A stretch of 28,313 nucleotides of DNA from a virus (lineage: Duplodnaviria > Heunggongvirae > Uroviricota > Caudoviricetes). Below are positions 1,246-12,465 of the stretch, in pieces. The translations under genes were made by a program, and so were the position numbers. Each line of letters starts with the position of its first letter. Position 1 is the first letter of the stretch. The stretch covers positions 1 through 28,313 of the IMG/VR virus record IMGVR_UViG_2721755712_000003; one strand, written 5' to 3'. The notes under the pieces are model-generated. The model made no database searches and was not told the origin of the DNA. It saw nothing but the letters and a program-made list of their open reading frames with translations.

Positions 1246-2156
1246 TTAGCCGCATGATTTATACTGTTTCCAGTTACAGGCTTCTTGAAGCGGTTTTAGC
1301 GTGGTTGACAGGCCGTTTAAATTGAAAGTTGCACTTACAGGGCTTTCATTATAAGGGGTTATTTTTGCATACATTTTGTTTGAGTTGGCTAGTTTTCTGA
1401 TGAAGTTAATGTCATTGCCTTTATAAAAAACAGCCTTTGTATCTGTAGATACTAGCCAGTTTCGCTCAACTGCTTTCTGTTTATCAAGGCGATACAGCAT
1501 GCTGGTTTGTTCAAGGCCTAAATATACATCCCAATTAAGAAATACTTCGGTTTTCTTTTCTCGGCAAGCTATAAACAGAGTAGGGGTAACCGCTTCTCCA
1601 AATGGAGTTCTTATATAATCATCACTTTCTAACGATAAAATTACATTTTTCGAATCATCAATTGGCGATGTAGTAATGGATGTGTGCCATTTTCCTGTGT
1701 CTGTGGCTTTCTCTAATTTTGATTTAGATTGCGCAACTTTTTCCTGTGGAAATGGTTTATCGTAGCAGTTTATTCTAGTTTCTTTATCGTTTTCTGCTCG
1801 GCATTTAGATATCTCAGAAAGATTTGGTTGCTGAGCCTCTGTTGTTACTAGCTGTTTCGCTTTAGATTTTGAGCTTACAGGCGGAGTAAATGTTGGAGAA
1901 AAAAACGGTCATAACAAGATAAACGTCTGTCATCATCTTTCTCATCAGGGCATTGATCTCTGCTTTCGAATTTTTCAGCAACTGTCGTTCGAGTCGGTTG
2001 TATTGACTTATCATAACAAGAAAGTCTTTCTTTATTATTTTCTATTGCTCGGCACTGGAGTGATGACTTAAAGTTATTATGCTCAGTTGCTGCGTGAGCA
2101 GGTAGCACACTAATTGATATAAATGATGCACCTATAGAAATAATCATATTTTTCAT
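1246..2156 (-). pseudogene. frameshifted gene for a secreted Cys-repeat protein (signal peptide plus three C-x(6-9)-[RK]-[LI]-x-C-Y-D repeats)
   Basis: ORF 1875..2156 (signal peptide MKNMIISIGASFISISVLPAHA, repeats ...KERLSCYDK and ...RRLSCYDRFF) stops at 1875. Reading open in the +1 frame from about 1903 encodes a third repeat (RINCYDKPF) and continues into ORF 1246..1500. The frame switch lies at an A7/T7 homopolymer (1898-1906). AT-rich. Confidence 0.55.
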
Positions 2157-2160
2157 TTTG

Positions 2161-2493
2161 TTATCCCTTTGGTTTAGTAAGAAATACTAAATTTCCGATA
2201 ATGATATTGCAAATAACCCATAAGCCTCCAATAGCAATTAAACCTAAGCCCGTACCAATAACTGTACCGGCTTTTTCGGCATCGGATGTGGCGTTGTTTA
2301 TTATTTCACCCACCTCTCTTAGCCCAACACAAATCGTGTAGATTATAAAAATATTAAATAATATGAAAAAATACTTAATGAGTTCTCCAAAAAATGAACG
2401 TTTAAGTTTTTTCAGTTGTTTGCCACAAGCAGGGCAAGACAATACTGAATCGATCACCTCTTTCTGGCATTCAGGACATTTGATTAATGCCAT
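2161..2493 (-). CDS. zinc-ribbon membrane protein (CPECQ...CPACG followed by two hydrophobic helices)
   Basis: Start ATG 2491-2493 (MALIKCPECQ...) with GGAGG SD at 2502-2506. Stop is 5 bp before the start of the downstream secreted-protein gene, suggesting one operon. AT-rich. Confidence 0.6.
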   Translation of the reverse strand: MALIKCPECQKEVIDSVLSCPACGKQLKKLKRSFFGELIKYFFILFNIFIIYTICVGLREVGEIINNATSDAEKAGTVIGTGLGLIAIGGLWVICNIIIGNLVFLTKPKG

Positions 2494-2549
2494 ATAATCT
2501 GCCTCCTTTGGCTCTCTACTAGCTGACGTTTGTAACAAAACATTTTGAT

Positions 2550-2579
2550 TTTATCAGACTTTTTATTGATATGTGTCAA
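2550..2579 (-). promoter_or_regulatory. candidate sigma70 promoter for the zinc-ribbon operon (TTGACA, 18-nt spacer, GATAAA)
   Basis: Minus-strand TTGACA is the reverse complement of 2574-2579 and GATAAA of 2550-2555, about 50 nt upstream of the start codon. Pattern match only. Confidence 0.3.
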
Positions 2580-3001
2580 TTGATTAGCTGGTATAGAGTG
2601 AGACAGGATGCCTTATCGACCTTACTCTGGCAACTGATTGACGGGGGATTGCTCCCCCGTCGCGGTTTCCTTACTGCTTACACTGTAAGAACGCCGCAAA
2701 CTCCGCTCCCCAGAAACTCATCCGTATTTCACACAGCGAACCGTGCAGCATCCAGATGATGAGGATTGCCGTCACGCAGAACGTGATGGCCGTAAGCGAT
2801 TTTTGCGACATAGCACTTGCTCCTTTTCCGGAGAGGCGCTAACCTTTCACTTGTCAAGGTAATGCGGTTAGGGCCTCGGTTAAACAGATATGTTTTCCGG
2901 GGCCTTTCCACATCCGGCCTTCGGGTATTCCCTCCGACCATCAGCCGAAAGGCACCCGCACGTAATCTATCGCTTTTTTGTTACTCCGGCAATTCTGCCT
3001 G

Positions 3002-3262
3002 TTAATCCTGAGGTAAAGGCAAACTCATCTGATTGTTTCCCCTGTGTGAAGCTGGCAGCTCATGCCACGGGATACCTTCTGATGAGTGAACGCCGGAGGC
3101 GTGTTTCGATGTGAATTTATGGAAAGCTTCCAGTGTTGAGAAGCATACGCCGCATTCCAGATTGTTACACTGGTAATACTTTTGCCGCACGGTGTTTGAA
3201 TCATTTTCCGGACGACTGGTGCGGATACGGGCAGATGCGCCACAAAGCGGACAACGGAACAT
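3002..3262 (-). CDS. ogr: Ogr/Delta-type zinc-finger late-gene transcriptional activator
   Basis: 86 aa, MFRCPLCGASARIRTSR...YYQCNNLECGVCF with the C-x2-C...C-x4-C arrangement typical of P2 Ogr. GGGAGG SD before ATG at 3260-3262. Confidence 0.9.
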   Translation of the reverse strand: MFRCPLCGASARIRTSRPENDSNTVRQKYYQCNNLECGVCFSTLEAFHKFTSKHASGVHSSEGIPWHELPASHRGNNQMSLPLPQD

Positions 3263-4149
3263 AGCGACCTCCCTTAACGTGGTGCTGCCGCTATTCTAAG
3301 TTGCTCACTCTGTTTCCGCTATCCATTCCGGGATTTTTGCCTCAAGCTCAAGCTGCGTGGTAAAGCCGCTGTTATCAATGGTGTGCCCGGCTTTTGCAAT
3401 AATCCAGTCCTGATTATCAATCTCGCTTTTAAATCCTGTTACCGTGCCATGCATTTCGGGGTAGAGCTCTGCACGTCCACGCGCCAGCGTGATGGAGAAT
3501 GATGCGGCTCCGCGTTGTAGTTGCTGCCACTTTGCCGCCGCTGCGCGTCTTGCTGCCTGCTCGTTCTGATAAGTCTTGCGTAACACAAACACATTGCCTT
3601 CCGCGCCTTCCATATAATCACCTTCACGGCTGCTGCTTTTCTCCTTTTTGGGTTTTGGCGGTTTACGGCGTTTCACGCTGACTTTTTTCTTTTTCCCGTA
3701 ATTAAGATCAAGCCAGTAGGCGCGTACCCCCGTATACGCCTCGCGGTCAGCAATGCGGAACTGATGGCGATCGCCGCTGCTGCGTGTAATGGCGAACGAG
3801 GGCAACGGCTGGCCCTGTGCGTTCACGCCACCACCTGGCATGATGAATAACAGATTGCCGCTTTTTACCGTGGTGATTGCACCCAGCATTTCCGCCATGC
3901 GCGTAAGGAAGGACATGTCGCTTTCTTCGGTCTGGTCGGCGTGGTCGATTTCGATATCCATCAGCATTTCGCTGATTTGCGGTTTCAGACCATACCGATG
4001 AGCGATGGCGGATACCACACGCTCAACGGTCACATCATGCCAGGACACCTCACGTTTAACGTTAAATTCATCCCAAAAATCTGCGCTTCTGGCTGAAACA
4101 GTCAGCCTGTCCGGCGGTCCTTCGTGAGCGATTTCATCAACAATGTAAG

Positions 4150-5370
4150 TGTAGATTCAATTGGTCAACGCAACAGTTATGTGAAAACATGGGGTTGCGG
4201 AGGTTTTTTGAATGAGACGAACATTTACAGCAGAGGAAAAAGCCTCTGTTTTTGAACTATGGAAGAACGGAACAGGCTTCAGTGAAATAGCGAATATCCT
4301 GGGTTCAAAACCCGGAACGATCTTCACTATGTTAAGGGATACTGGCGGCATAAAACCCCATGAGCGTAAGCGGGCTGTAGCTCACCTGACACTGTCTGAG
4401 CGCGAGGAGATACGAGCTGGTTTGTCAGCCAAAATGAGCATTCGTGCGATAGCTACTGCGCTGAATCGCAGTCCTTCGACGATCTCACGTGAAGTTCAGC
4501 GTAATCGGGGCAGACGCTATTACAAAGCTGTTGATGCTAATAACCGAGCCAACAGAATGGCGAAAAGGCCAAAACCGTGCTTACTGGATCAAAATTTACC
4601 ATTGCGAAAGCTTGTTCTGGAAAAGCTGGAGATGAAATGGTCTCCAGAGCAAATATCAGGATGGTTAAGGCGAACAAAACCACGTCAAAAAACGCTGCGA
4701 ATATCACCTGAGACAATTTATAAAACGCTGTACTTTCGTAGCCGTGAAGCGCTACACCACCTGAATATACAGCATCTGCGACGGTCGCATAGCCTTCGCC
4801 ATGGCAGGCGTCATACCCGCAAAGGCGAAAGAGGTACGATTAACATAGTGAACGGAACACCAATTCACGAACGTTCCCGAAATATCGATAACAGACGCTC
4901 TCTGGGGCATTGGGAGGGCGATTTAGTCTCAGGTACAAAAAACTCTCATATAGCCACACTTGTAGACCGAAAATCACGTTATACGATCATCCTTAGACTC
5001 AGGGGCAAAGATTCTGTCTCAGTAAATCAGGCTCTTACCGACAAATTCCTGAGTTTACCGTCAGAACTCAGAAAATCACTGACATGGGACAGAGGAATGG
5101 AACTGGCCAGACATCTAGAATTTACTGTCAGCACCGGCGTTAAAGTTTACTTCTGCGATCCTCAGAGTCCTTGGCAGCGGGGAACAAATGAGAACACAAA
5201 TGGGCTAATTCGGCAGTACTTTCCTAAAAAGACATGTCTTGCCCAATATACTCAACATGAACTAGATCTGGTTGCTGCTCAGCTAAACAACAGACCGAGA
5301 AAGACACTGAAGTTCAAAACACCGAAAGAGATAATTGAAAGGAGTGTTGCATTGACAGATTGAATCTACA
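4150..5370 (+). mobile_element. IS30 insertion sequence, complete (1221 bp), flanked by 2-bp target duplication AG
   Basis: Left end TGTAGATTCAATTGGTCAACGCAAC at 4150; right end is its imperfect inverted copy (22 of 25 matches) ending at 5370. AG at 4148-4149 and 5371-5372. Length equals canonical IS30. Confidence 0.95.
4212..5363 (+). CDS. insI: IS30 transposase
   Basis: 383-aa ORF MRRTFTAEEKASVFELWKNGTGFSEIANILG... recognised as the E. coli IS30 transposase (HTH N-terminus, DDE core). Confidence 0.95.
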   Translation: MRRTFTAEEKASVFELWKNGTGFSEIANILGSKPGTIFTMLRDTGGIKPHERKRAVAHLTLSEREEIRAGLSAKMSIRAIATALNRSPSTISREVQRNRGRRYYKAVDANNRANRMAKRPKPCLLDQNLPLRKLVLEKLEMKWSPEQISGWLRRTKPRQKTLRISPETIYKTLYFRSREALHHLNIQHLRRSHSLRHGRRHTRKGERGTINIVNGTPIHERSRNIDNRRSLGHWEGDLVSGTKNSHIATLVDRKSRYTIILRLRGKDSVSVNQALTDKFLSLPSELRKSLTWDRGMELARHLEFTVSTGVKVYFCDPQSPWQRGTNENTNGLIRQYFPKKTCLAQYTQHELDLVAAQLNNRPRKTLKFKTPKEIIERSVALTD

Positions 5371-5794
5371 AGTGCCTTTTTCTGTCAGCGGTTCTCCCTT
5401 CCAGCCAATGAGAACCGTCAGGCGCGCGCCCCGTGGCGGTAGCTGCAACTGACCATCCGCATCATCCAGCGTGATGGTGAGCTGGTCCGCCTCAAATCCC
5501 CGGTTGTCGGTCAGTGACAGGCTCATCAGGCGCTCTGCCACGCCTGACAGCGTTTTACCCTCCGCGAGAATATCAAAATCCGGCATTTTTACGGGGTCTG
5601 TGCCCTGACTGAGCAATTGCATGGTGGTGTCGGTCATCTGCTCCCTCCCTGTGCGGCATGGTCGCATGTGCGTGCGGAGGGGGTTACTGCTTTTTGTTGT
5701 CGCCGTGGCGAGAGAACGGCGCAGGGGTGAGATTACGCGCGTGGTGGGTGATGATTGTTGCCGAATCATTTAACGGATACAAGGGGCTGAAGCT

Positions 5795-6979
5795 ATGAGT
5801 GAAACTCGTTTTCATGGTGCCCGTGTTACGGAAAATACCGACCTGGTAACAGCGATTAACGATGTTGATTCCAGCGTTATCGGTATCGTGGCAACGGCGG
5901 ATGATGCGGACGCGAAGCTGTTCCCGCTGAACAAGCCCACACTGCTGACCCGCGTCAATGACGTGCTGGGAAAATGCGGGACAACGGGGACGCTTTATCG
6001 TGCGCTTAAGGCCATCGCAGACCAGGTGAGTACAAAGGTGATCGTCGTTCGCGTGGCTGAACACAAAGAAGAAGACGGAAAAACGCAGGATCAACTGGTT
6101 ATCGGTGGTTCTGAATCTGACGGCAGCTATACGGGGATGTATGCGCTGCTTGTTGCAGAGCAGGATGAAAGCATCGGATACCGTCCGCGTATTCTGGCCG
6201 CGCCGGAGCTGGACACGGAGGCGGTAACAAAATCCCTGTGCGTGATTGCGGGTAAACTGCGCGCGTTTGTGTATGCCTCATGTCACGGCTGTAACACGAT
6301 GGCTGAGGCGATTACCTACCGCCAGAAATTCAACGAACGTGAGGTGATGCTCTTATGGCCGGACTTCATCGCCTACAACCCGAAAAGTGGCAAAAACGAA
6401 ACGTTCCCCGCGCCTGCCTATGCGTGCGGCCTTCGTGCGTACATTGACCATGAGCAGGGTTGGCACAAATCGCTGTCCAACGTTCCGGTTAAAAATGTGC
6501 TGGGGATGTCCAGGCATGTGTTCTGGTCGTTGCAGGCCGAAGACAGTGATGCCAACAGCCTCAACAACAAAGAAATCACGACCATTATTCGTCGCAACGG
6601 GTTCCGCTTCTGGGGCAACCGCACACCGGAAACGAACGCCTACATCTTTGAGGTGTATACCCGAACCGCACAGGTGCTGGCTGATTCAATTGCGGAAGCG
6701 CAGTTTGAAACCATCGATAGTCCACTGACGCCTGCGAACGTGAAGGATGTTATCAGTGCCATCAGGGCAAAACTGGATTCACTGGTGACTGCCGGGAAAC
6801 TGATTGGGGCGTCGTGCTGGTATGACGTGGTGGATAACAGCACCACGAATTTACGTCAGGGGCGTGTGCGTATTCGCTACAAATATACGCCCGTTCCTCC
6901 GCTGGAAGACATGGAGCTTTACCAGTCGTTTACTGATGAATTCTTTGGTCCCGCATTTGCGGTGCTGGGAGGTGCCTGA
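5795..6979 (+). CDS. FI: contractile tail sheath protein
   Basis: 394 aa, AAGGGG SD; conserved blocks FPLNKP, WPDF, GFRFWGNRT, YKYTPVPPLE matching P2 gpFI. On the opposite strand to the other late genes. Confidence 0.95.
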   Translation: MSETRFHGARVTENTDLVTAINDVDSSVIGIVATADDADAKLFPLNKPTLLTRVNDVLGKCGTTGTLYRALKAIADQVSTKVIVVRVAEHKEEDGKTQDQLVIGGSESDGSYTGMYALLVAEQDESIGYRPRILAAPELDTEAVTKSLCVIAGKLRAFVYASCHGCNTMAEAITYRQKFNEREVMLLWPDFIAYNPKSGKNETFPAPAYACGLRAYIDHEQGWHKSLSNVPVKNVLGMSRHVFWSLQAEDSDANSLNNKEITTIIRRNGFRFWGNRTPETNAYIFEVYTRTAQVLADSIAEAQFETIDSPLTPANVKDVISAIRAKLDSLVTAGKLIGASCWYDVVDNSTTNLRQGRVRIRYKYTPVPPLEDMELYQSFTDEFFGPAFAVLGGA

Positions 6980-7491
6980 TGGCTGTACCAAAACATCTTC
7001 GCTTTTTTACGCTGTTTGTGGATGGTGAAAACGAAGTGGGTAAGGTGACGTCCGTCACCCTGCCTAAACTGACGCGCAAAACCGACAGCTACCGGGGTGG
7101 TGGCATGATGGGTGCGGTAAGTATTGATCTCGGTCTGGACGACTCCGCGCTTGATGCGAGCTTTGTCATGGGGGGCGCAGTTCGTGAGCTGTTCCTTAAG
7201 TATGGCGGCACGATTGACGGCACGCTACTGCGTTTTGCGGGTGAATACTACACCGATGCAGAAAGCGACCTGTATGAAGTCGAAATGCGCGGACGCGTGA
7301 CGGAAATTGATATGGGGGAAGCCAAACAGGGCGAAGCCACATCACACACTTACGCCATTAAAAACACCTACTACAAGCTGAGTGTTAACGATCGTCCGTT
7401 GTGGGAGATTGACCTGCTGAACTTCATTTACCGGAAGGACGGCAAGGACATTGTGCCCGATCGCATCCGTTCCGCGCTTGGGCTTGGCTGA
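6979..7491 (+). CDS. FII: tail tube protein
   Basis: 170 aa; ATG overlaps the FI stop (TGATG), the usual FI-FII position and size. Confidence 0.9.
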   Translation: MAVPKHLRFFTLFVDGENEVGKVTSVTLPKLTRKTDSYRGGGMMGAVSIDLGLDDSALDASFVMGGAVRELFLKYGGTIDGTLLRFAGEYYTDAESDLYEVEMRGRVTEIDMGEAKQGEATSHTYAIKNTYYKLSVNDRPLWEIDLLNFIYRKDGKDIVPDRIRSALGLG

Positions 7492-7545
7492 TAAGTAATA
7501 TGCAGGCGGCGCAGTGCGTCGCCTCTGACTGAAAGGAGTTTCCTG

Positions 7546-7911
7546 ATGAAAGAGACGAAAAACATCGATACCGAAAACACGGTAGTTGCTGACACTGTGA
7601 AAGAAACCAGTGAGCGTGGCGTAAAACTTACCCAACCAATTGAGCGAGGCGGCGAAAAAATCACGTATGTGGAGATCACCGGGGCTATTGAGCAGGCTGG
7701 ATCTCTGCGAGATTTGTCGCTGTCTGATGTGCTGAATCTGAAAGCGGAATCCATGTTTACGCTGCTGTCACGAGTGACATCACCGCGACTGGATGAAGTG
7801 ACGATCAAAAAAATGGCATCCCGTGACTTTATTCAGTTATGTGTGGTTGCCGTAAATTTTTTGAGCGGTGCGGACTCTGGCGGGAAGAACGAACAGGCGA
7901 CGGAAGCCTGA
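7546..7911 (+). CDS. E: tail assembly chaperone gpE (zero-frame product)
   Basis: 121 aa, AAGGAG SD 7 nt upstream; lies between tube and tape-measure genes and contains the slippery heptamer near its 3' end. Confidence 0.8.
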   Translation: MKETKNIDTENTVVADTVKETSERGVKLTQPIERGGEKITYVEITGAIEQAGSLRDLSLSDVLNLKAESMFTLLSRVTSPRLDEVTIKKMASRDFIQLCVVAVNFLSGADSGGKNEQATEA

Positions 7912-8075
7912 TCACGGTTGTGTGCTTTGAGCACATAGAAGACTTTGTGGCAGATATTGCCGTTATTTTTAACTGGTCGCCCGCCGAAATCTTCATGATG
8001 ACGCCCGGCGAAGTGGTTAGCTGGCGTGAGCGGGCGGCACTTCGCAGCGGGAATGCAGACAATGAAGACTCTTGA
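7546..8075 (+). CDS. gpE+E' chaperone fusion made by programmed -1 frameshift at 7857-7863
   Basis: Zero-frame codons AAT TTT TTG (N F L). A -1 slip on T TTT TTG reads TTT GAG CGG..., which is exactly ORF 7839..8075 (FFERCGLW...), ending with TGA at 8073-8075. Confidence 0.75.
7857..7863 (+). promoter_or_regulatory. T-TTT-TTG slippery heptamer for the E/E' -1 frameshift
   Basis: Read directly; frame relationship verified by coordinate arithmetic (E in frame 1, E' in frame 0). Confidence 0.75.
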
Positions 8076-10869
8076 TATCCGGGTCGCTTTCAGCGCCGTT
8101 GACAGGCTGACCCAGCCTGCCGAAAACGCCCGCCGCCTGATGGGGCAGTTTGGTGACTCCATCCAGCGAACGCAGGGGGCGATCAAAAATCTCGAGCGTC
8201 AGGCGCGTTCATTTGAGCGCGCCCGCGACGCTGTCAGTAAAGCGGATGCGGGTATCGTGAAAGCACGACGCCAGCTTAACGCCCTTAATCAGTTACAACG
8301 CACGGGTACAGTGCTCAGCGAAAAACAACAAAAGCTGATGCAGCAGTTAAGCACCCGGCTTGAACGCCTGAATGAATCGCGCACGCGGGAAATTCAGAAA
8401 ATGCGGGAGCTTGGCGGAGAGCTGAAACGCCACGGCATTTCCCTGACAGGCAGCGATAACACCATCCAGCAGGCCATCAGACGCACCGAACAGTACAACA
8501 ATCAGCTTGAACGCGAACGGCAGGCGCTTGCGCGTGTAACGCGGGCGCGTGAGCGGTATTCGCGCGCGCAGGAAACAGCGGGAAAACTGAAAACAGGTGG
8601 TGCACTGGCAATTGGTGCGGCAGCGGCGGGCGGCTATGCTGCCGGGCGTTTTTTGCAGCCTGCGATCGGGTTCGGGAAAGAGATGTCCCGCGTTCAGGCA
8701 CTGACGCGAATCGACCAGAACAGCCCGCAGTTTAAGGCGCTGCGTGAGCAGGCGTTAAAACTTGGCTCTGAAACGCAGTTCACCGCAGGCGATGCCGCCA
8801 GTGGGCAGGCATTTCTGGCAATGGCTGGCTTCACACCGCAGGCCATTCAGGCTGCGCTTCCCGGCGTGCTGAGCATGGCAACGGCTGGCGGTATGGACCT
8901 TGGCGAGACGGCAGATATTGGCTCAAATATCCTGACGCAGTTCGGCCTCTCCGCTGACCAGATGGACCGGGTCGGTGACACGCTTACAGCAGTGTTTACC
9001 CGTACTAACACTGACCTTCGCGCACTGGGCGAAACCATGAAATATGCAGGTCCGGTGGCGGGTAAGCTGGGAATATCGCTGGAGCAGGCCGCAGCGATGG
9101 CGGGCGTGCTGGCGAATATGGGTATCAGAGGGAGTGATGCCGGGACGGCAATGCGTGCCAGCCTGGCTCGTCTGGCATCACCGCCAAAGGCGGCAGCAGA
9201 AGCGCTGAAAGAGCTGGGTGTGTCCGTCTCTGATGCGAACGGCAAAATGCGCCCGATGGAAGATGTGCTGGCCGACCTTTATAAAGCCACCCGTAAATAC
9301 GGGGAAGTTGACCGGGTATCGTTCTTTAAGGACATTGCCGGGGAAGAGGCTTTCACGTCGTTTATGGCTCTCGTTGATGCGGCGGGTGACGGCTCCCTGC
9401 CCAAACTGAGAAAAGAACTTGAGGGCGCACGCGGTGAGGCTGAACGCACGGCAAAGGTTATGGCCAATAACCTTGATGGCGACCTGAAATCACTCGGCAG
9501 TGCATGGGAAGGGCTGCGTATCCGCATTGCAGATCTGATTGATGGTCCGCTGCGTTCTGTCACGCAGTGGCTCACGCGGGTGGTCTCAAAGGTGACGGCG
9601 CTGGCACAGGCCCATCCGGTACTGACGCGCCAGTTACTGATAGCAGGCGGTGCGCTGCTGGCAATGACTGCAACGGTTGGCTCGTTGTCGCTGGTTATTG
9701 GAGTGCTTCACGGGAAGCTGGCCACGTTGCGTCTTGGTTTTTCTCTCCTGACCGGATCAATGAATGCTGTCAGGCTCCTGCCAGCACTATGGGGAATGGT
9801 GACGGGTTCCGTTTCGTTACTGGGGGGCGCTATCGGGGCGCTGTTCAGCCCGGTCGGATTGATTGCTGCTGCGTTTGTGGCTGCGGCAGTTCTCATCTGG
9901 AAATACTGGGAACCCATCAAGGCGTTTTATGCCGGGGTGTTCAGCGGGATTATGGAGCGGCTGGCCCCGTTACGCGAAACCTTTGAACGGTTTGGTCCTG
10001 TTTTTGACGCAATCGGAAGCGGGATAAGTCAGGTGTTTAACTGGTTTAAATCGTTGCTGTCACCGATGGAGTCCAGCAAGGAAACGCTGGATAAATGTAC
10101 CAGTGCTGGCGAGATATTCGGTAACGTTCTTGGCGGTGCGTTACAGCTTGTTCTGACGCCCGCAAAAATGTTGCTGGATACGCTGGCGTGGATACTTGAA
10201 AAACTCGGTGTGCTTCCGGATGAAGCGGAAAGGGCGAGAAAGAAAATCGAAGACGCACAGCGTGCGGCCATTCTTCAGGACAAGGTTGCTCTGTTTCAGG
10301 GAGACATTGCGAAAATCAATCCGCCGAAGTCTGCGGAAAATGGCAATGGCACCGGAGGTGATAAACCCAAAGACAATAAACCGCTCACAGACAGCAATAC
10401 CGGTACGCTACGCAGACTCAGCAAAATTGCTGATAACACAGGTAAGCTGGTTGATGAGACGAAAAAACGTATTGGCCCCGGCGATATTGTCTTTAAGAAC
10501 CTGCCCCGCGCACTTGCCGTTCGTGGGGAGTGGCAGGAGCGGAAGATTGTGCAGGTCAGTAAGCCTGCCCCCGCAATTAATATCACACCCGTGGTCCCGG
10601 CTCCGCTGCCTCCGGCGCTGGTCCCTGTTGTTGCGGCCAGCTCCCGCCCGGTGGCGGAGGCCATACGATCTCCAGTGGCATCAGTTCCTGTAACTTCCCG
10701 TAACCGGGAGCCTGTTGCCTCCGGATTTGGTGGTGAAATTCATGTTCATCTGCATAACGTTGTTACGCAGAATCCCCGCGAACTGGCGAAACTGGTCGGT
10801 GAAATGGTCAGGGCAGAAATGGAACGGCGCGCCCGTGCCGGGCGTGGCAGTTTTTACGATAAAGATTGA
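8053..10869 (+). CDS. T: tail tape measure protein
   Basis: About 938 aa, coiled-coil N-terminus, central hydrophobic block, Ala/Gly-rich segments, Pro-rich C-terminus. Start taken at ATG 8053 (or 8062), overlapping the E' end. Confidence 0.9.
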   Translation: MQTMKTLDIRVAFSAVDRLTQPAENARRLMGQFGDSIQRTQGAIKNLERQARSFERARDAVSKADAGIVKARRQLNALNQLQRTGTVLSEKQQKLMQQLSTRLERLNESRTREIQKMRELGGELKRHGISLTGSDNTIQQAIRRTEQYNNQLERERQALARVTRARERYSRAQETAGKLKTGGALAIGAAAAGGYAAGRFLQPAIGFGKEMSRVQALTRIDQNSPQFKALREQALKLGSETQFTAGDAASGQAFLAMAGFTPQAIQAALPGVLSMATAGGMDLGETADIGSNILTQFGLSADQMDRVGDTLTAVFTRTNTDLRALGETMKYAGPVAGKLGISLEQAAAMAGVLANMGIRGSDAGTAMRASLARLASPPKAAAEALKELGVSVSDANGKMRPMEDVLADLYKATRKYGEVDRVSFFKDIAGEEAFTSFMALVDAAGDGSLPKLRKELEGARGEAERTAKVMANNLDGDLKSLGSAWEGLRIRIADLIDGPLRSVTQWLTRVVSKVTALAQAHPVLTRQLLIAGGALLAMTATVGSLSLVIGVLHGKLATLRLGFSLLTGSMNAVRLLPALWGMVTGSVSLLGGAIGALFSPVGLIAAAFVAAAVLIWKYWEPIKAFYAGVFSGIMERLAPLRETFERFGPVFDAIGSGISQVFNWFKSLLSPMESSKETLDKCTSAGEIFGNVLGGALQLVLTPAKMLLDTLAWILEKLGVLPDEAERARKKIEDAQRAAILQDKVALFQGDIAKINPPKSAENGNGTGGDKPKDNKPLTDSNTGTLRRLSKIADNTGKLVDETKKRIGPGDIVFKNLPRALAVRGEWQERKIVQVSKPAPAINITPVVPAPLPPALVPVVAASSRPVAEAIRSPVASVPVTSRNREPVASGFGGEIHVHLHNVVTQNPRELAKLVGEMVRAEMERRARAGRGSFYDKD

Positions 10870-11532: not shown

Positions 11533-12020
11533 ATGCTGAATAATAGAGATATGAATATTAATGAACTTAAAGACTGTATTCACTATGAAGTAATCGGTAG
11601 CGAGCGTCCTTTCTCCTGGCGAAAGGCAATTGTTCGCGCAATAAAACATAGAAGACTTCGTTATTTATTTTGGTGGCGCATAGCCAAATACCTTTTTGAT
11701 AAAGGCGGATACTGCCGGAAGATTGCGGGGAAAATAGAACGTTTCATTCTTGATAAATATAATGTAACAGTCCCTTTAACTGTAAATATAGGGAAAGGCT
11801 TTGATATTTCTTATCTCAACAGTGTTGTTATCGGTCACAAAGTAACAATCGGTGAAAATTGTTCAATAAAACCGGGGGTAACTATTGGGCTACGTGGTGA
11901 TTTTAATGATATGGATATTGTTATAGGACATAATGTGACCATTGGTTGTAATGCCACCATTCTTGGTGGCAAAGTGCGTATAGGAAACAATGTCACAATA
12001 GGTGCTCATGCATTGGTAAC
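11533..12020 (+). pseudogene. left-handed beta-helix (hexapeptide-repeat) sugar O-acetyltransferase-like gene, WcaB/CysE-like, probably 3'-truncated
   Basis: AT-rich ORF with tandem [LIV]-G-x-x-x-x-[IV] hexapeptide repeats (VVIGHKVTIGENCSIKPGVTIG..., IVIGHNVTIG..., VRIGNNVTIGAHALV). Base composition switches at about 12010-12020, beyond which the ORF is antisense of the fibre gene. Confidence 0.6.
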
Positions 12021-12465
12021 CACCACCTTCAAGAACTTCAAGGAGTCCCTGACCATAACTTCCTTCTTCCGGATAGTTGCGGTCAAATGAAGCGATTGAG
12101 CCACTACTGTTTCGCCATAAACCAAGATGCTCTGCGCCTCCGAGCGTGTTCAGGTCAATGGTTGTGCTCAGGGGGCGTGTTGCAGACTGAACCTGACGCC
12201 AGTAACTCCACGGACCGTCTGAACCATTCCATGTGCCAGAAAGGTTGCGCATATAAACATTGCCTGTTCTGGTGGTGTAACGCTGCATTCCTGCAAAATT
12301 ACCGCCATTGAATACCTCCAGTACACCGACTGCACCGTCTTCAGGGAAATTTTTAGCAGCCGTCGCGTTAGTGGATGTAGCTTTAGACCAGACGCCAAGA
12401 TAAGCCTTAACGGGACCAAATGTATTCAAGTCAGCATCAAGCGGCATTTCGCCATTGTTTTTCAT
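12021..12465 (-). pseudogene. tail fibre C-terminal receptor-binding fragment (N-terminal shaft missing, C-terminus cut)
   Basis: Two tandem copies of a fibre-tip-like motif (DLNTFGPV...GVLEVFNGGNFAGMQRYTT...W..W and DLNTLGG...GLLEVLEGGG); the second copy breaks off at about 12021. Starts 5 bp after the J stop with no gpI gene between. Confidence 0.6.

Follow-up and report, generated by a model that had tools for sequence, protein, structure and literature searches.

The stretch of viral DNA analysed here (28,313 nucleotides, positions 1 to 28,313 of IMG/VR virus record IMGVR_UViG_2721755712_000003, called the window below) carries two adjacent minus-strand genes between positions 1246 and 2493 that make up a cassette of accessory ("moron") genes carried by temperate phages of the P2 family, lodged in a swappable slot between ogr/hok and the phage attachment site, attP. 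The upstream gene probably encodes a predicted zinc ribbon fused to a two-helix membrane hairpin of the DrpB type, as judged from sequence comparison, while the downstream gene encodes a Sec-exported protein of the VasI/TagO family. The role that we consider most likely for the pair is exclusion of, or defence against, other phages at the envelope of lysogens; this is a tentative reading, to which we would give slightly less than an even chance. In the window itself, the second gene is frameshifted.

The first line of evidence is the position of the pair relative to the host chromosome. The limit between host and phage DNA is defined by the following features:

1-996: host gene flk, which opens the window.

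997-1117: junction between host DNA and prophage, made of the flk-pdxB intergenic region and a duplicate of the first 23 nt of pdxB (GTGAAAATCCTTGTTGATGAAAA, at 1095-1117).

The chromosome of E. coli K-12 MG1655 is 100% identical to the window over positions 1-1117, and the match ends there, 23 nt into the pdxB coding sequence. In K-12, pdxB and flk are only 98 bp apart and nothing is inserted between them, meaning that the site is empty. Therefore, the window from position 1118 on is inserted DNA. From the junction on come the pair, hok with a sok-like RNA, ogr and a D gene that is truncated; an IS30 copy follows, and then the tail genes of a P2-like prophage in a degraded state. The pair thus sits within this prophage, with ogr/hok on one side and the attachment site in the 5' end of pdxB on the other. 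A junction located 23 nt within pdxB leaves a short duplicate of the start of this gene beside flk (1095-1117), and the replacement 5' end of pdxB is presumably supplied by the phage at its other end, beyond the window.

Both genes lie in DNA whose GC content is 0.32-0.40 (over about 1050-2550), against 0.50-0.55 in the flanks on both sides. A first-pass annotation, made from the letters of the window alone, had pointed out this low GC content, correctly, and had taken the two genes for a separately acquired moron or islet placed between the host gene and the prophage end. The pair is indeed horizontally acquired cargo and the word moron applies; the notion of a separate islet beside the prophage does not hold, as the pair is within it.

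The presence/absence comparison that the same annotation had proposed shows that the pair is not part of the core chromosome: the K-12 site is empty and P2-like phages carry the two genes. They are intact in the sequenced phages P88_4B11, PhiR44_2, 500465-2, Citrobacter Shae_phiSM and Klebsiella 3LV2017. The gene order of P88_4B11 is D, ogr, hok, two small genes, the zinc-ribbon gene, the VasI-like gene, attP and int; in Klebsiella phage 3LV2017, the pair, with 62% protein identity, adjoins the annotated attR. The content of the slot varies. Phage Chuche has a methyltransferase and Com cassette in place of the pair, with flanks about 94% identical, and phage P88 has hok and no pair. The empty site in K-12, the carriage by sequenced phages and the variable content of the slot together identify the pair as phage cargo. 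Moreover, the ratio of nonsynonymous to synonymous substitution rates (dN/dS) is about 0.1-0.45 for both genes in unsaturated comparisons, indicating purifying selection. Dozens of relatives have kept both the motifs and the two genes, which are not chance features.

The upstream gene is intact and is preceded by a ribosome-binding sequence:

2161-2493, minus strand: zinc-ribbon gene, 110 aa, ATG at 2493 and stop at 2161 (open reading frame (ORF) call, Pfam/NCBIfam profiles, AlphaFold model).

2502-2507, minus strand: Shine-Dalgarno sequence AGGAGG, conserved in relatives, with 8 nt between it and the zinc-ribbon ATG.

Its product begins with MALIKCPECQKEVIDSVLSCPACGKQ and carries, at residues 6-23, a CPEC...CPAC motif (CPxC-x10-CPxC), from which a basic linker leads to two long hydrophobic helices separated by a short periplasmic loop (SDAEKAG); the C-terminal motif is L-T-K-P-K. 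Close relatives all keep the four cysteines of the predicted zinc ribbon (C6, C9, C20 and C23). The zinc-ribbon models score just under their cutoffs, Pfam PF13240 (Zn_Ribbon_1) giving 24.5 bits for a cutoff of 25 (E 2.3e-5). In the AlphaFold model, strands 3-5 and 12-14 make a small beta-hairpin ribbon, and long helices run from 34 to 67 and from 71 to 106. The double CxxC of the predicted ribbon and the two predicted transmembrane (TM) helices of the first-pass description are both present, in a protein of 110 rather than 111 aa. This protein belongs to PHROGs family 6586 (PHROG 6586), of unknown function, and is named "zinc-ribbon domain-containing protein" in RefSeq. In the window copy, a glycine that is conserved elsewhere is replaced (G95C), a change absent from the intact-gene strain.

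The membrane part of the protein resembles DrpB (YedR) of E. coli. Residues 28-109 align with positions 2-84 of the 86 positions of the NCBIfam DrpB profile (NF038392), with 17 bits for a cutoff of 50 (E 0.0055), and hhalign extends the similarity to DrpB across the full membrane module (E 3.5e-4). Conversely, a profile built from the best 146 relatives gives E. coli DrpB 23.1 bits over the whole module, and Klebsiella homologues have weak precomputed Pfam DrpB matches. DrpB spans the inner membrane as a hairpin of two helices, both termini being cytoplasmic and the periplasmic loop about 10-20 residues long. The phage protein has the same architecture: about 100 aa, N-in/C-in, two TM helices, a short periplasmic loop and a conserved distal part of the second helix containing a threonine. 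It is at this distal end that conservation is strongest, including a T-R/K-P motif. T106 and P108, invariant in the phage family, align with T89 and P91 of DrpB, at the cytoplasmic end of the second helix, and T89 is the one residue that DrpB was found to need in order to activate Rcs (PMC11709261). The two proteins differ in that DrpB has neither a zinc ribbon nor a VasI-like partner and is encoded by a chromosomal gene of a few enteric genera. On these profile and motif comparisons, a relationship of the membrane module to DrpB appears likely, with membership of the family falling below the curated thresholds.

An exhaustive HMMER search of a collection of 1.84 billion proteins, using an alignment of the zinc-ribbon protein, returned 3,702 representative relatives, many of which span the two-helix module only, without the ribbon. 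When the genome collection was scanned with the zinc-ribbon profile, most of the matches were to bare zinc ribbons (L121-L158); similarity beyond the ribbon was limited to 12 loci (L109-L120), 11 of them with full-length relatives and one with a partial relative (L119). Among the HMMER relatives, P0196 and P0177 have the DrpB-like two-helix module fused to tRNA_anti-like OB domains. The C-terminal segment of P0196 looks DUF1311/LprI-like by eye, so that the family to which the first-pass annotation had tentatively related the repeats of the second protein appears in a distant relative of the first protein and not in the second.

The DrpB connection raises the question of signalling. The pair could be an envelope-signalling or lysogenic-conversion module, in which the DrpB-like protein plugs into the RcsC-dependent Rcs pathway or into the divisome and the VasI-like protein acts as a sensor or modulator; the outcome would be a lysogen altered in its capsule, its envelope stress state or its division, and not a direct block to phages. 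The similarity to DrpB does span the whole membrane module, with T89/T106 and the T-[RK]-P motif conserved, and DrpB, a septal-ring protein, activates Rcs when present in multicopy, independently of RcsF and in a manner that needs the periplasmic domain of RcsC (PMC11709261, PMC7648144). The fusion of the two-helix module to various exported domains in other bacteria would also fit a generic role as membrane adaptor or signalling element. Nevertheless, the similarity is below threshold, the effects of DrpB were seen on overproduction only and the single-copy gene has no known phenotype (PMC11709261), and nothing links the VasI or IalB folds to Rcs. We therefore regard this explanation as rather unlikely. 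It also overlaps with exclusion at the envelope, since capsule production driven by Rcs would itself lower phage adsorption.

The second gene begins at 2156, only 4 nt past the stop of the first. The first-pass annotation was right to place it closely downstream, the gap being 4 nt and not 5 bp. In the window this gene is split over two frames:

1875-2156, minus strand: proximal ORF of 93 aa, with the signal peptide, Cys motifs 1 and 2 (CRAIENNKERLSCYD and CPDEKDDDRRLSCYD) and an 8-residue out-of-frame tail.

1899-1905, minus strand: frameshift site, a run of seven T (T7; A7 on the plus strand), which is T8 in intact copies (alignment A1, four intact relatives).

1246-1898, minus strand: distal, out-of-frame part, with the linker, the third Cys motif (CRAENDKETRINCYD), the IalB-like beta-sandwich and a 6-codon extension, QYKSCG.

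The protein opens with a Sec-type signal peptide, MKNMIISIGASFISISVLPAHA/ATEH (…SVLPAHA/ATEH), and the motif C-x8-R-[LI]-x-C-Y-D occurs three times. A signal-peptide protein with three Cys repeats had been proposed from the outset; signal and repeats are as described, and it is only the single ORF then assumed that is contradicted by the frameshift. Once the frame is repaired, residues 118-296 match Pfam VasI (PF11319) over profile positions 1-184 of 184, with 83.6 bits for a cutoff of 26.5 (E 1.8e-23). A Pfam scan of the repaired protein up to E 1 yielded VasI, a weak IalB match and DUF725 only. This disposes of the relation to DUF1311/LprI suggested for the second gene in the first-pass annotation, for which the scan gave no match at all. 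The protein belongs to PHROGs family 1848, of unknown function, and is named "TagO" in RefSeq.

An AlphaFold model of an intact, 90%-identical homologue shows three helical hairpins, one per Cys motif, joined by disordered linkers and followed by a confident IalB-like beta-sandwich at residues 155-297 (predicted local distance difference test, pLDDT, 83-96). Relatives have one, two or three hairpins, for lengths of about 210, 250 and 297 aa, respectively. Since the Pfam VasI domain includes one hairpin, the two extra ones were interpreted as N-terminal duplications. Thus, gene 2 encodes a Sec-exported protein of the VasI/TagO family, with three disulfide-capable hairpins on flexible linkers ahead of an IalB-like beta-sandwich. 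IalB itself, the invasion-associated locus B protein of Bartonella (PDB 3dtd), shows 18% sequence identity; it lacks Cys hairpins and any link to phages, and studies of it concern erythrocyte invasion only. No solved structure was found by sequence, and in a fold search against BFVD all matches were to uncharacterised phage proteins.

The RefSeq name implies a part in type VI secretion (T6SS), i.e. that the protein is a true accessory of this system which assists or regulates the T6SS of the host, or shields the lysogen from T6SS attack. The strong Pfam match speaks in this direction, as does the listing of the copy carried by Citrobacter rodentium phage phiSM as a T6SS-related virulence cargo gene, under the name "T6SS VasI family" (PMC6456863). 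Indeed, the T6SS protein VasI/TagO (VCA0118 in Vibrio cholerae; PF11319, TIGR03360) is likewise exported and has one C-x8-RL-x-CYD hairpin followed by a beta-rich domain. The phage protein departs from it in several respects. Its score against the T6SS equivalog TIGR03360 is 72.2 bits, well under the cutoff of 124.2; it is phage-encoded and not beside tss genes, all of the 80 viral loci and 6 genomic look-ups being prophage with no T6SS cluster; it has two additional N-terminal hairpins; and its constant partner in P2-like phages is a zinc-ribbon protein with two TM helices, not a Tss protein. Moreover, the function of TagO/VasI within the T6SS itself is listed as unknown in a 2026 review (PMC13584744), and the authors who described the SDIC4 system (see below) likewise concluded that their protein had a "co-opted fold" (bioRxiv 10.1101/2024.01.28.577318). 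A genuine T6SS function is therefore improbable, and the "TagO / type VI secretion" label on prophage genes, sometimes taken as a virulence trait, is probably misleading.

The VasI-like gene of phages is associated with the zinc-ribbon gene. The latter is directly upstream, on the same strand, in 66 of the 80 IMG/VR loci with a VasI-like gene, and the association holds for the versions with one, two and three repeats and down to about 50% identity. The order D, ogr, zinc ribbon, VasI is also found in prophages of Klebsiella, Dickeya and Enterobacter, at different chromosomal sites. Natural fusions also exist. In P0075, which occupies the same place next to ogr, the zinc ribbon is followed by one TM segment, one hairpin and the VasI domain. 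P0255 consists of the two-helix module without the ribbon, a third TM segment and a VasI domain (Pfam VasI, E 1.4e-9), and P0254 is built along similar lines, with additional TM segments and a C-terminal domain that is VasI-like by eye, without a Pfam match. By topology, the VasI domain is on the periplasmic side in all three. The adjacency in 66 of 80 viral loci and the fusions were interpreted as meaning that the pair is one envelope-spanning unit. The arrangement already envisaged in the first-pass annotation, a zinc ribbon facing the cytoplasm and a Cys-repeat protein exported to the periplasm, is supported by the structural models, with which hydropathy and the natural fusions agree.

The association is not obligatory. 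In the 14 remaining loci the VasI-like gene has no zinc-ribbon partner and, therefore, this protein can work alone or with other partners. Two of the unpaired genes directly follow ogr (L074 and L076); in other temperate phages an unpaired gene lies between a cI-like repressor and the integrase, and elsewhere it is convergent with a different membrane protein having zinc-ribbon and TM2 domains. In a P2/186-like prophage of Pectobacterium carotovorum (L108, positions 5355-8574), a VasI-like gene without the CYD motif comes after the gene for a 200-aa tail-anchored protein with a Flk_N domain and precedes that of an NsnB/AriA-like ATPase (PADLOC E 2.3e-51), all of these between the repressor and the integrase. 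The presence of a Flk_N domain there and of flk beside the cassette of the window is probably a coincidence.

The zinc-ribbon protein also has another partner. Outside the enterics, in Aeromonadaceae, Rhodocyclaceae, Agrobacterium, Lysobacterales and Bdellovibrionales, the gene for a zinc-ribbon protein with two TM helices is preceded by that of a zinc-ribbon protein with a single TM segment and a periplasmic domain (L015, positions 1742-2818; L110-L118; L120). The preceding protein is conserved, has about 170-240 aa and belongs to no Pfam family; this is an unstudied pairing of the same membrane module. An exported domain together with a small inner-membrane protein bearing a cytoplasmic head is thus a recurring theme.

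We propose that the two phage proteins form one inner-membrane complex which would hold the VasI domain in the periplasm, that this complex would be produced in lysogens, and that its action at the envelope would exclude, or defend against, other phages. Exclusion could operate through a periplasmic block of genome entry, or through signalling via the DrpB-like helices, for example by the Rcs envelope-stress pathway. A defence role is favoured by the SDIC4 precedent, by the phage cargo slot and by the placement of VasI-like genes in the lysogeny module of other phages. In the Pectobacterium prophage, furthermore, the VasI-like gene has that of the NsnB/AriA-like ATPase as its neighbour.

SDIC4 of Serratia, a system made of SDIC4A and SDIC4B (AWY87_RS24860 and AWY87_RS12625), is the only case in which an experimental function has been reported for a VasI-like fold. 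SDIC4B, which has this fold and is encoded outside T6SS clusters, protects E. coli 10- to 200-fold against several phages, and is sufficient alone, the small partner being dispensable (bioRxiv 10.1101/2024.01.28.577318). Like the pair described here, SDIC4 is a two-gene locus with a central protein of VasI-like fold, in mobile or variable DNA of Enterobacterales and away from any T6SS; the product of gene 2 qualifies through its Pfam VasI match and the IalB-like beta-sandwich of the model. There are clear differences. The phage protein is an unambiguous Pfam VasI member with three N-terminal Cys hairpins, whereas SDIC4B reportedly has no BLAST-level similarity to VasI, and SDIC4 resides in LptG-YjiA chromosomal islands beside BrxR, whereas the pair occupies a slot of P2 phages; brxR is absent next to the pair, which is flanked by hok and ogr and by the attachment site. 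The two systems were compared by fold and by published description.

A more general precedent is offered by the classical morons and superinfection exclusion proteins: old, tin and Z/fun of P2, Imm and Sp of T4, SieA of P22 and gp15 of HK97. These are AT-rich accessory genes found in swappable slots of temperate phages and presumed to be expressed in lysogens, and several encode inner-membrane or periplasmic proteins directed against incoming phages. We know of no sequence or fold relationship between the pair and any of them.

Several observations weigh against a defensive envelope complex. Fourteen of the 80 viral VasI-like genes do without the zinc-ribbon partner. The similarity of the membrane module to DrpB is under every curated cutoff (17 against 50 bits), and membrane helices easily give spurious similarity. 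The PADLOC-DB v2 models have no match to the VasI-like protein and only a spurious one to the zinc-ribbon protein (E 0.015). The analogy with SDIC4 appears to be one of fold only. The main defence hotspots described for P2 do not include the slot between ogr and the attachment site (PMC9122126, PMC13586616), and the papers on these hotspots mention neither VasI nor TagO nor zinc-ribbon genes. Finally, both the defence role and expression in lysogens are inferred, and the candidate promoter fails a consensus scan.

A broader and more speculative view, which we hold to be distinctly unlikely, would make such pairs widespread prophage-borne trans-envelope devices. The periplasmic domain would detect phage genome entry, peptidoglycan damage or puncture by a T6SS, and the DrpB mimic would relay this across the inner membrane, with the Rcs phosphorelay or the divisome, or else some cytoplasmic target that the zinc ribbon has, as recipient. 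If true, this would be the first biochemical role for the VasI/TagO fold and for the DrpB family, which reaches over 3,700 representative proteins whose exported partners vary.

Returning to exclusion at the envelope, the interest of the cassette is that it ties VasI/TagO, a T6SS-associated protein, to DrpB, known from overproduction only, through adjacency and fusions and in a phage cargo slot. The working hypothesis is that of a new envelope-level module for phage exclusion or signalling in P2-like prophages of E. coli, Klebsiella, Citrobacter, Enterobacter and Dickeya. The genes are already annotated yet unstudied. The first-pass annotation did not recognise the module, which is only partly justified: names for its components exist in RefSeq and PHROGs, as does the phiSM listing. 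In the literature we found no description of the pairing with a DrpB-like zinc-ribbon protein, of the fusions or of the hairpin duplications.

The copy present in the window has been damaged. The frame that opens at 2156 stops at 1875-1877, and the third motif and the C-terminal domain are in the -1 frame, down to 1246. The change from T8 to T7 therefore removes the third hairpin and the entire beta-sandwich from the exported product and leaves two hairpins. In addition, the normal stop codon TAG is CAG in the window copy, which adds 6 codons. In RefSeq, strains identical to the window have a "hypothetical protein" of 93 aa and a "TagO" of 188 aa at 1246-1812, without signal peptide, while strain FDAARGOS_1059 has one TagO of 297 aa.

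Of 5,426 complete E. coli genomes screened with an 84-nt probe across the run, 104 carry the gene. The exact T7 allele is present in 40 of the 104, from enterotoxigenic E. coli (ETEC) lineages such as O6:H16 and O166:H15 and including 9 plasmid records. A sequencing error could thus be discarded, the allele being found in 40 independent complete genomes, and the frameshift is a real, inherited mutation. The other 64 genomes differ from the probe; among the rows listed, each holds an intact gene annotated TagO. In the 66 paired IMG/VR loci, the zinc-ribbon gene is always intact (66/66), and the VasI-like gene is disrupted in six (L044, L045 and L052-L055), four times by T7 and twice by other truncations (L044 and L045).

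Could the T7 run be a recoding site, giving two products per locus by -1 ribosomal frameshifting or transcriptional slippage? The zero frame reads CGU UUU UUU C, which contains the slippery heptamer U_UUU_UUU; a -1 slip would restore the exact wild-type sequence ...CYDRFFSPTF...; and the allele is stable in 40 genomes, plasmid copies included. On the other hand, intact relatives have T8 and are read straight through, one phage has TTTCTTTT at this place, showing that the run is not conserved, and no stimulatory structure lies downstream (fold z-score -0.14). These three facts led us to reject programmed frameshifting as the principal explanation of the locus. T7 is also confined to closely related copies sharing G95C, as expected for one inherited mutation, and other prophage copies are broken differently (L044 and L045). 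Recoding is thus hardly credible.

Plasmid p120899_146 of an ETEC strain (L161, NZ_CP025917.1, 126.6-133.7 kb) carries a block made of a D fragment, ogr, hok, the zinc-ribbon gene and the frameshifted VasI gene, which adjoins a group II intron and a topoisomerase fragment; such blocks occur on large ETEC plasmids. T7 and G95C are common to the window and the plasmid copies and, therefore, the chromosomal and plasmid copies have one origin. With the T7 truncation, the G95C change in the membrane partner and a decayed prophage around it, the window copy is probably inactive. The practical meaning of the cassette for this particular genome is accordingly modest, the copy being frameshifted and the prophage decaying.

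Two possible regulatory elements flank the pair:

2550-2579, minus strand: candidate promoter put forward in the first-pass annotation, TTGACA (2574-2579), 18 nt, GATAAA (2550-2555).

1195-1234, no strand assigned: perfect inverted repeat of 18 bp with a 4-nt loop (repeat I1), just downstream of the VasI-like gene and before the attachment-site junction.

The promoter could not be confirmed. A consensus scan missed it, finding 2 sites in the region when 5.4 were expected by chance, and the spacer, 3 nt longer in related phages, is not conserved. No element resembling a P2 late promoter (TGT-N12-ACA) was seen by eye upstream of the pair. The inverted repeat is conserved in related phages (alignment columns about 1380-1420). 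It was considered as an intrinsic terminator and rejected, since it lacks a T tract and the intrinsic-terminator scan did not list it; it may be a factor-dependent terminator, or an integrase or integration host factor (IHF) arm site, i.e. an element of the attachment-site arm. A 14-nt near-copy of one of its arms is found on the host side, at 1080-1093.

On the other side of the pair, the window contains:

2671-2957, minus strand: hok/gef toxin gene (2671-2811; RefSeq "Hok/Gef family protein") and sok-like antisense RNA region (2798-2957).

3002-3262, minus strand: ogr/Delta-like late-gene activator, at the end of the conserved P2-like backbone; Pfam Ogr_Delta is found at the equivalent position in related loci.

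Against Rfam sok (RF01794; E 4.3e-8) the region scores 45.8 bits, short of the gathering score, which is 59. The hok gene and the sok-like region belong to the same ogr-proximal cargo zone and are outside the pair; the hok block is retained in relatives without the pair, such as phages P88 and Chuche.

Beyond ogr, the prophage is a rearranged, degraded remnant. Over 3305-5795, the D (tail) gene is truncated and followed by the IS30 copy (transposase at 4212-5363), then by the tail sheath gene in the opposite orientation. Identical strains without IS30 show the same truncation of D, and the capsid, terminase and gpA genes are also partial there. Further on, an ORF at 11533-12090 (plus strand), between tail gene U and tail-fibre remnants, is placed like the serine acetyltransferase gene of an otherwise identical strain (L004, 29329-29868); with this assignment made by position only, it looks like a further item of prophage cargo.

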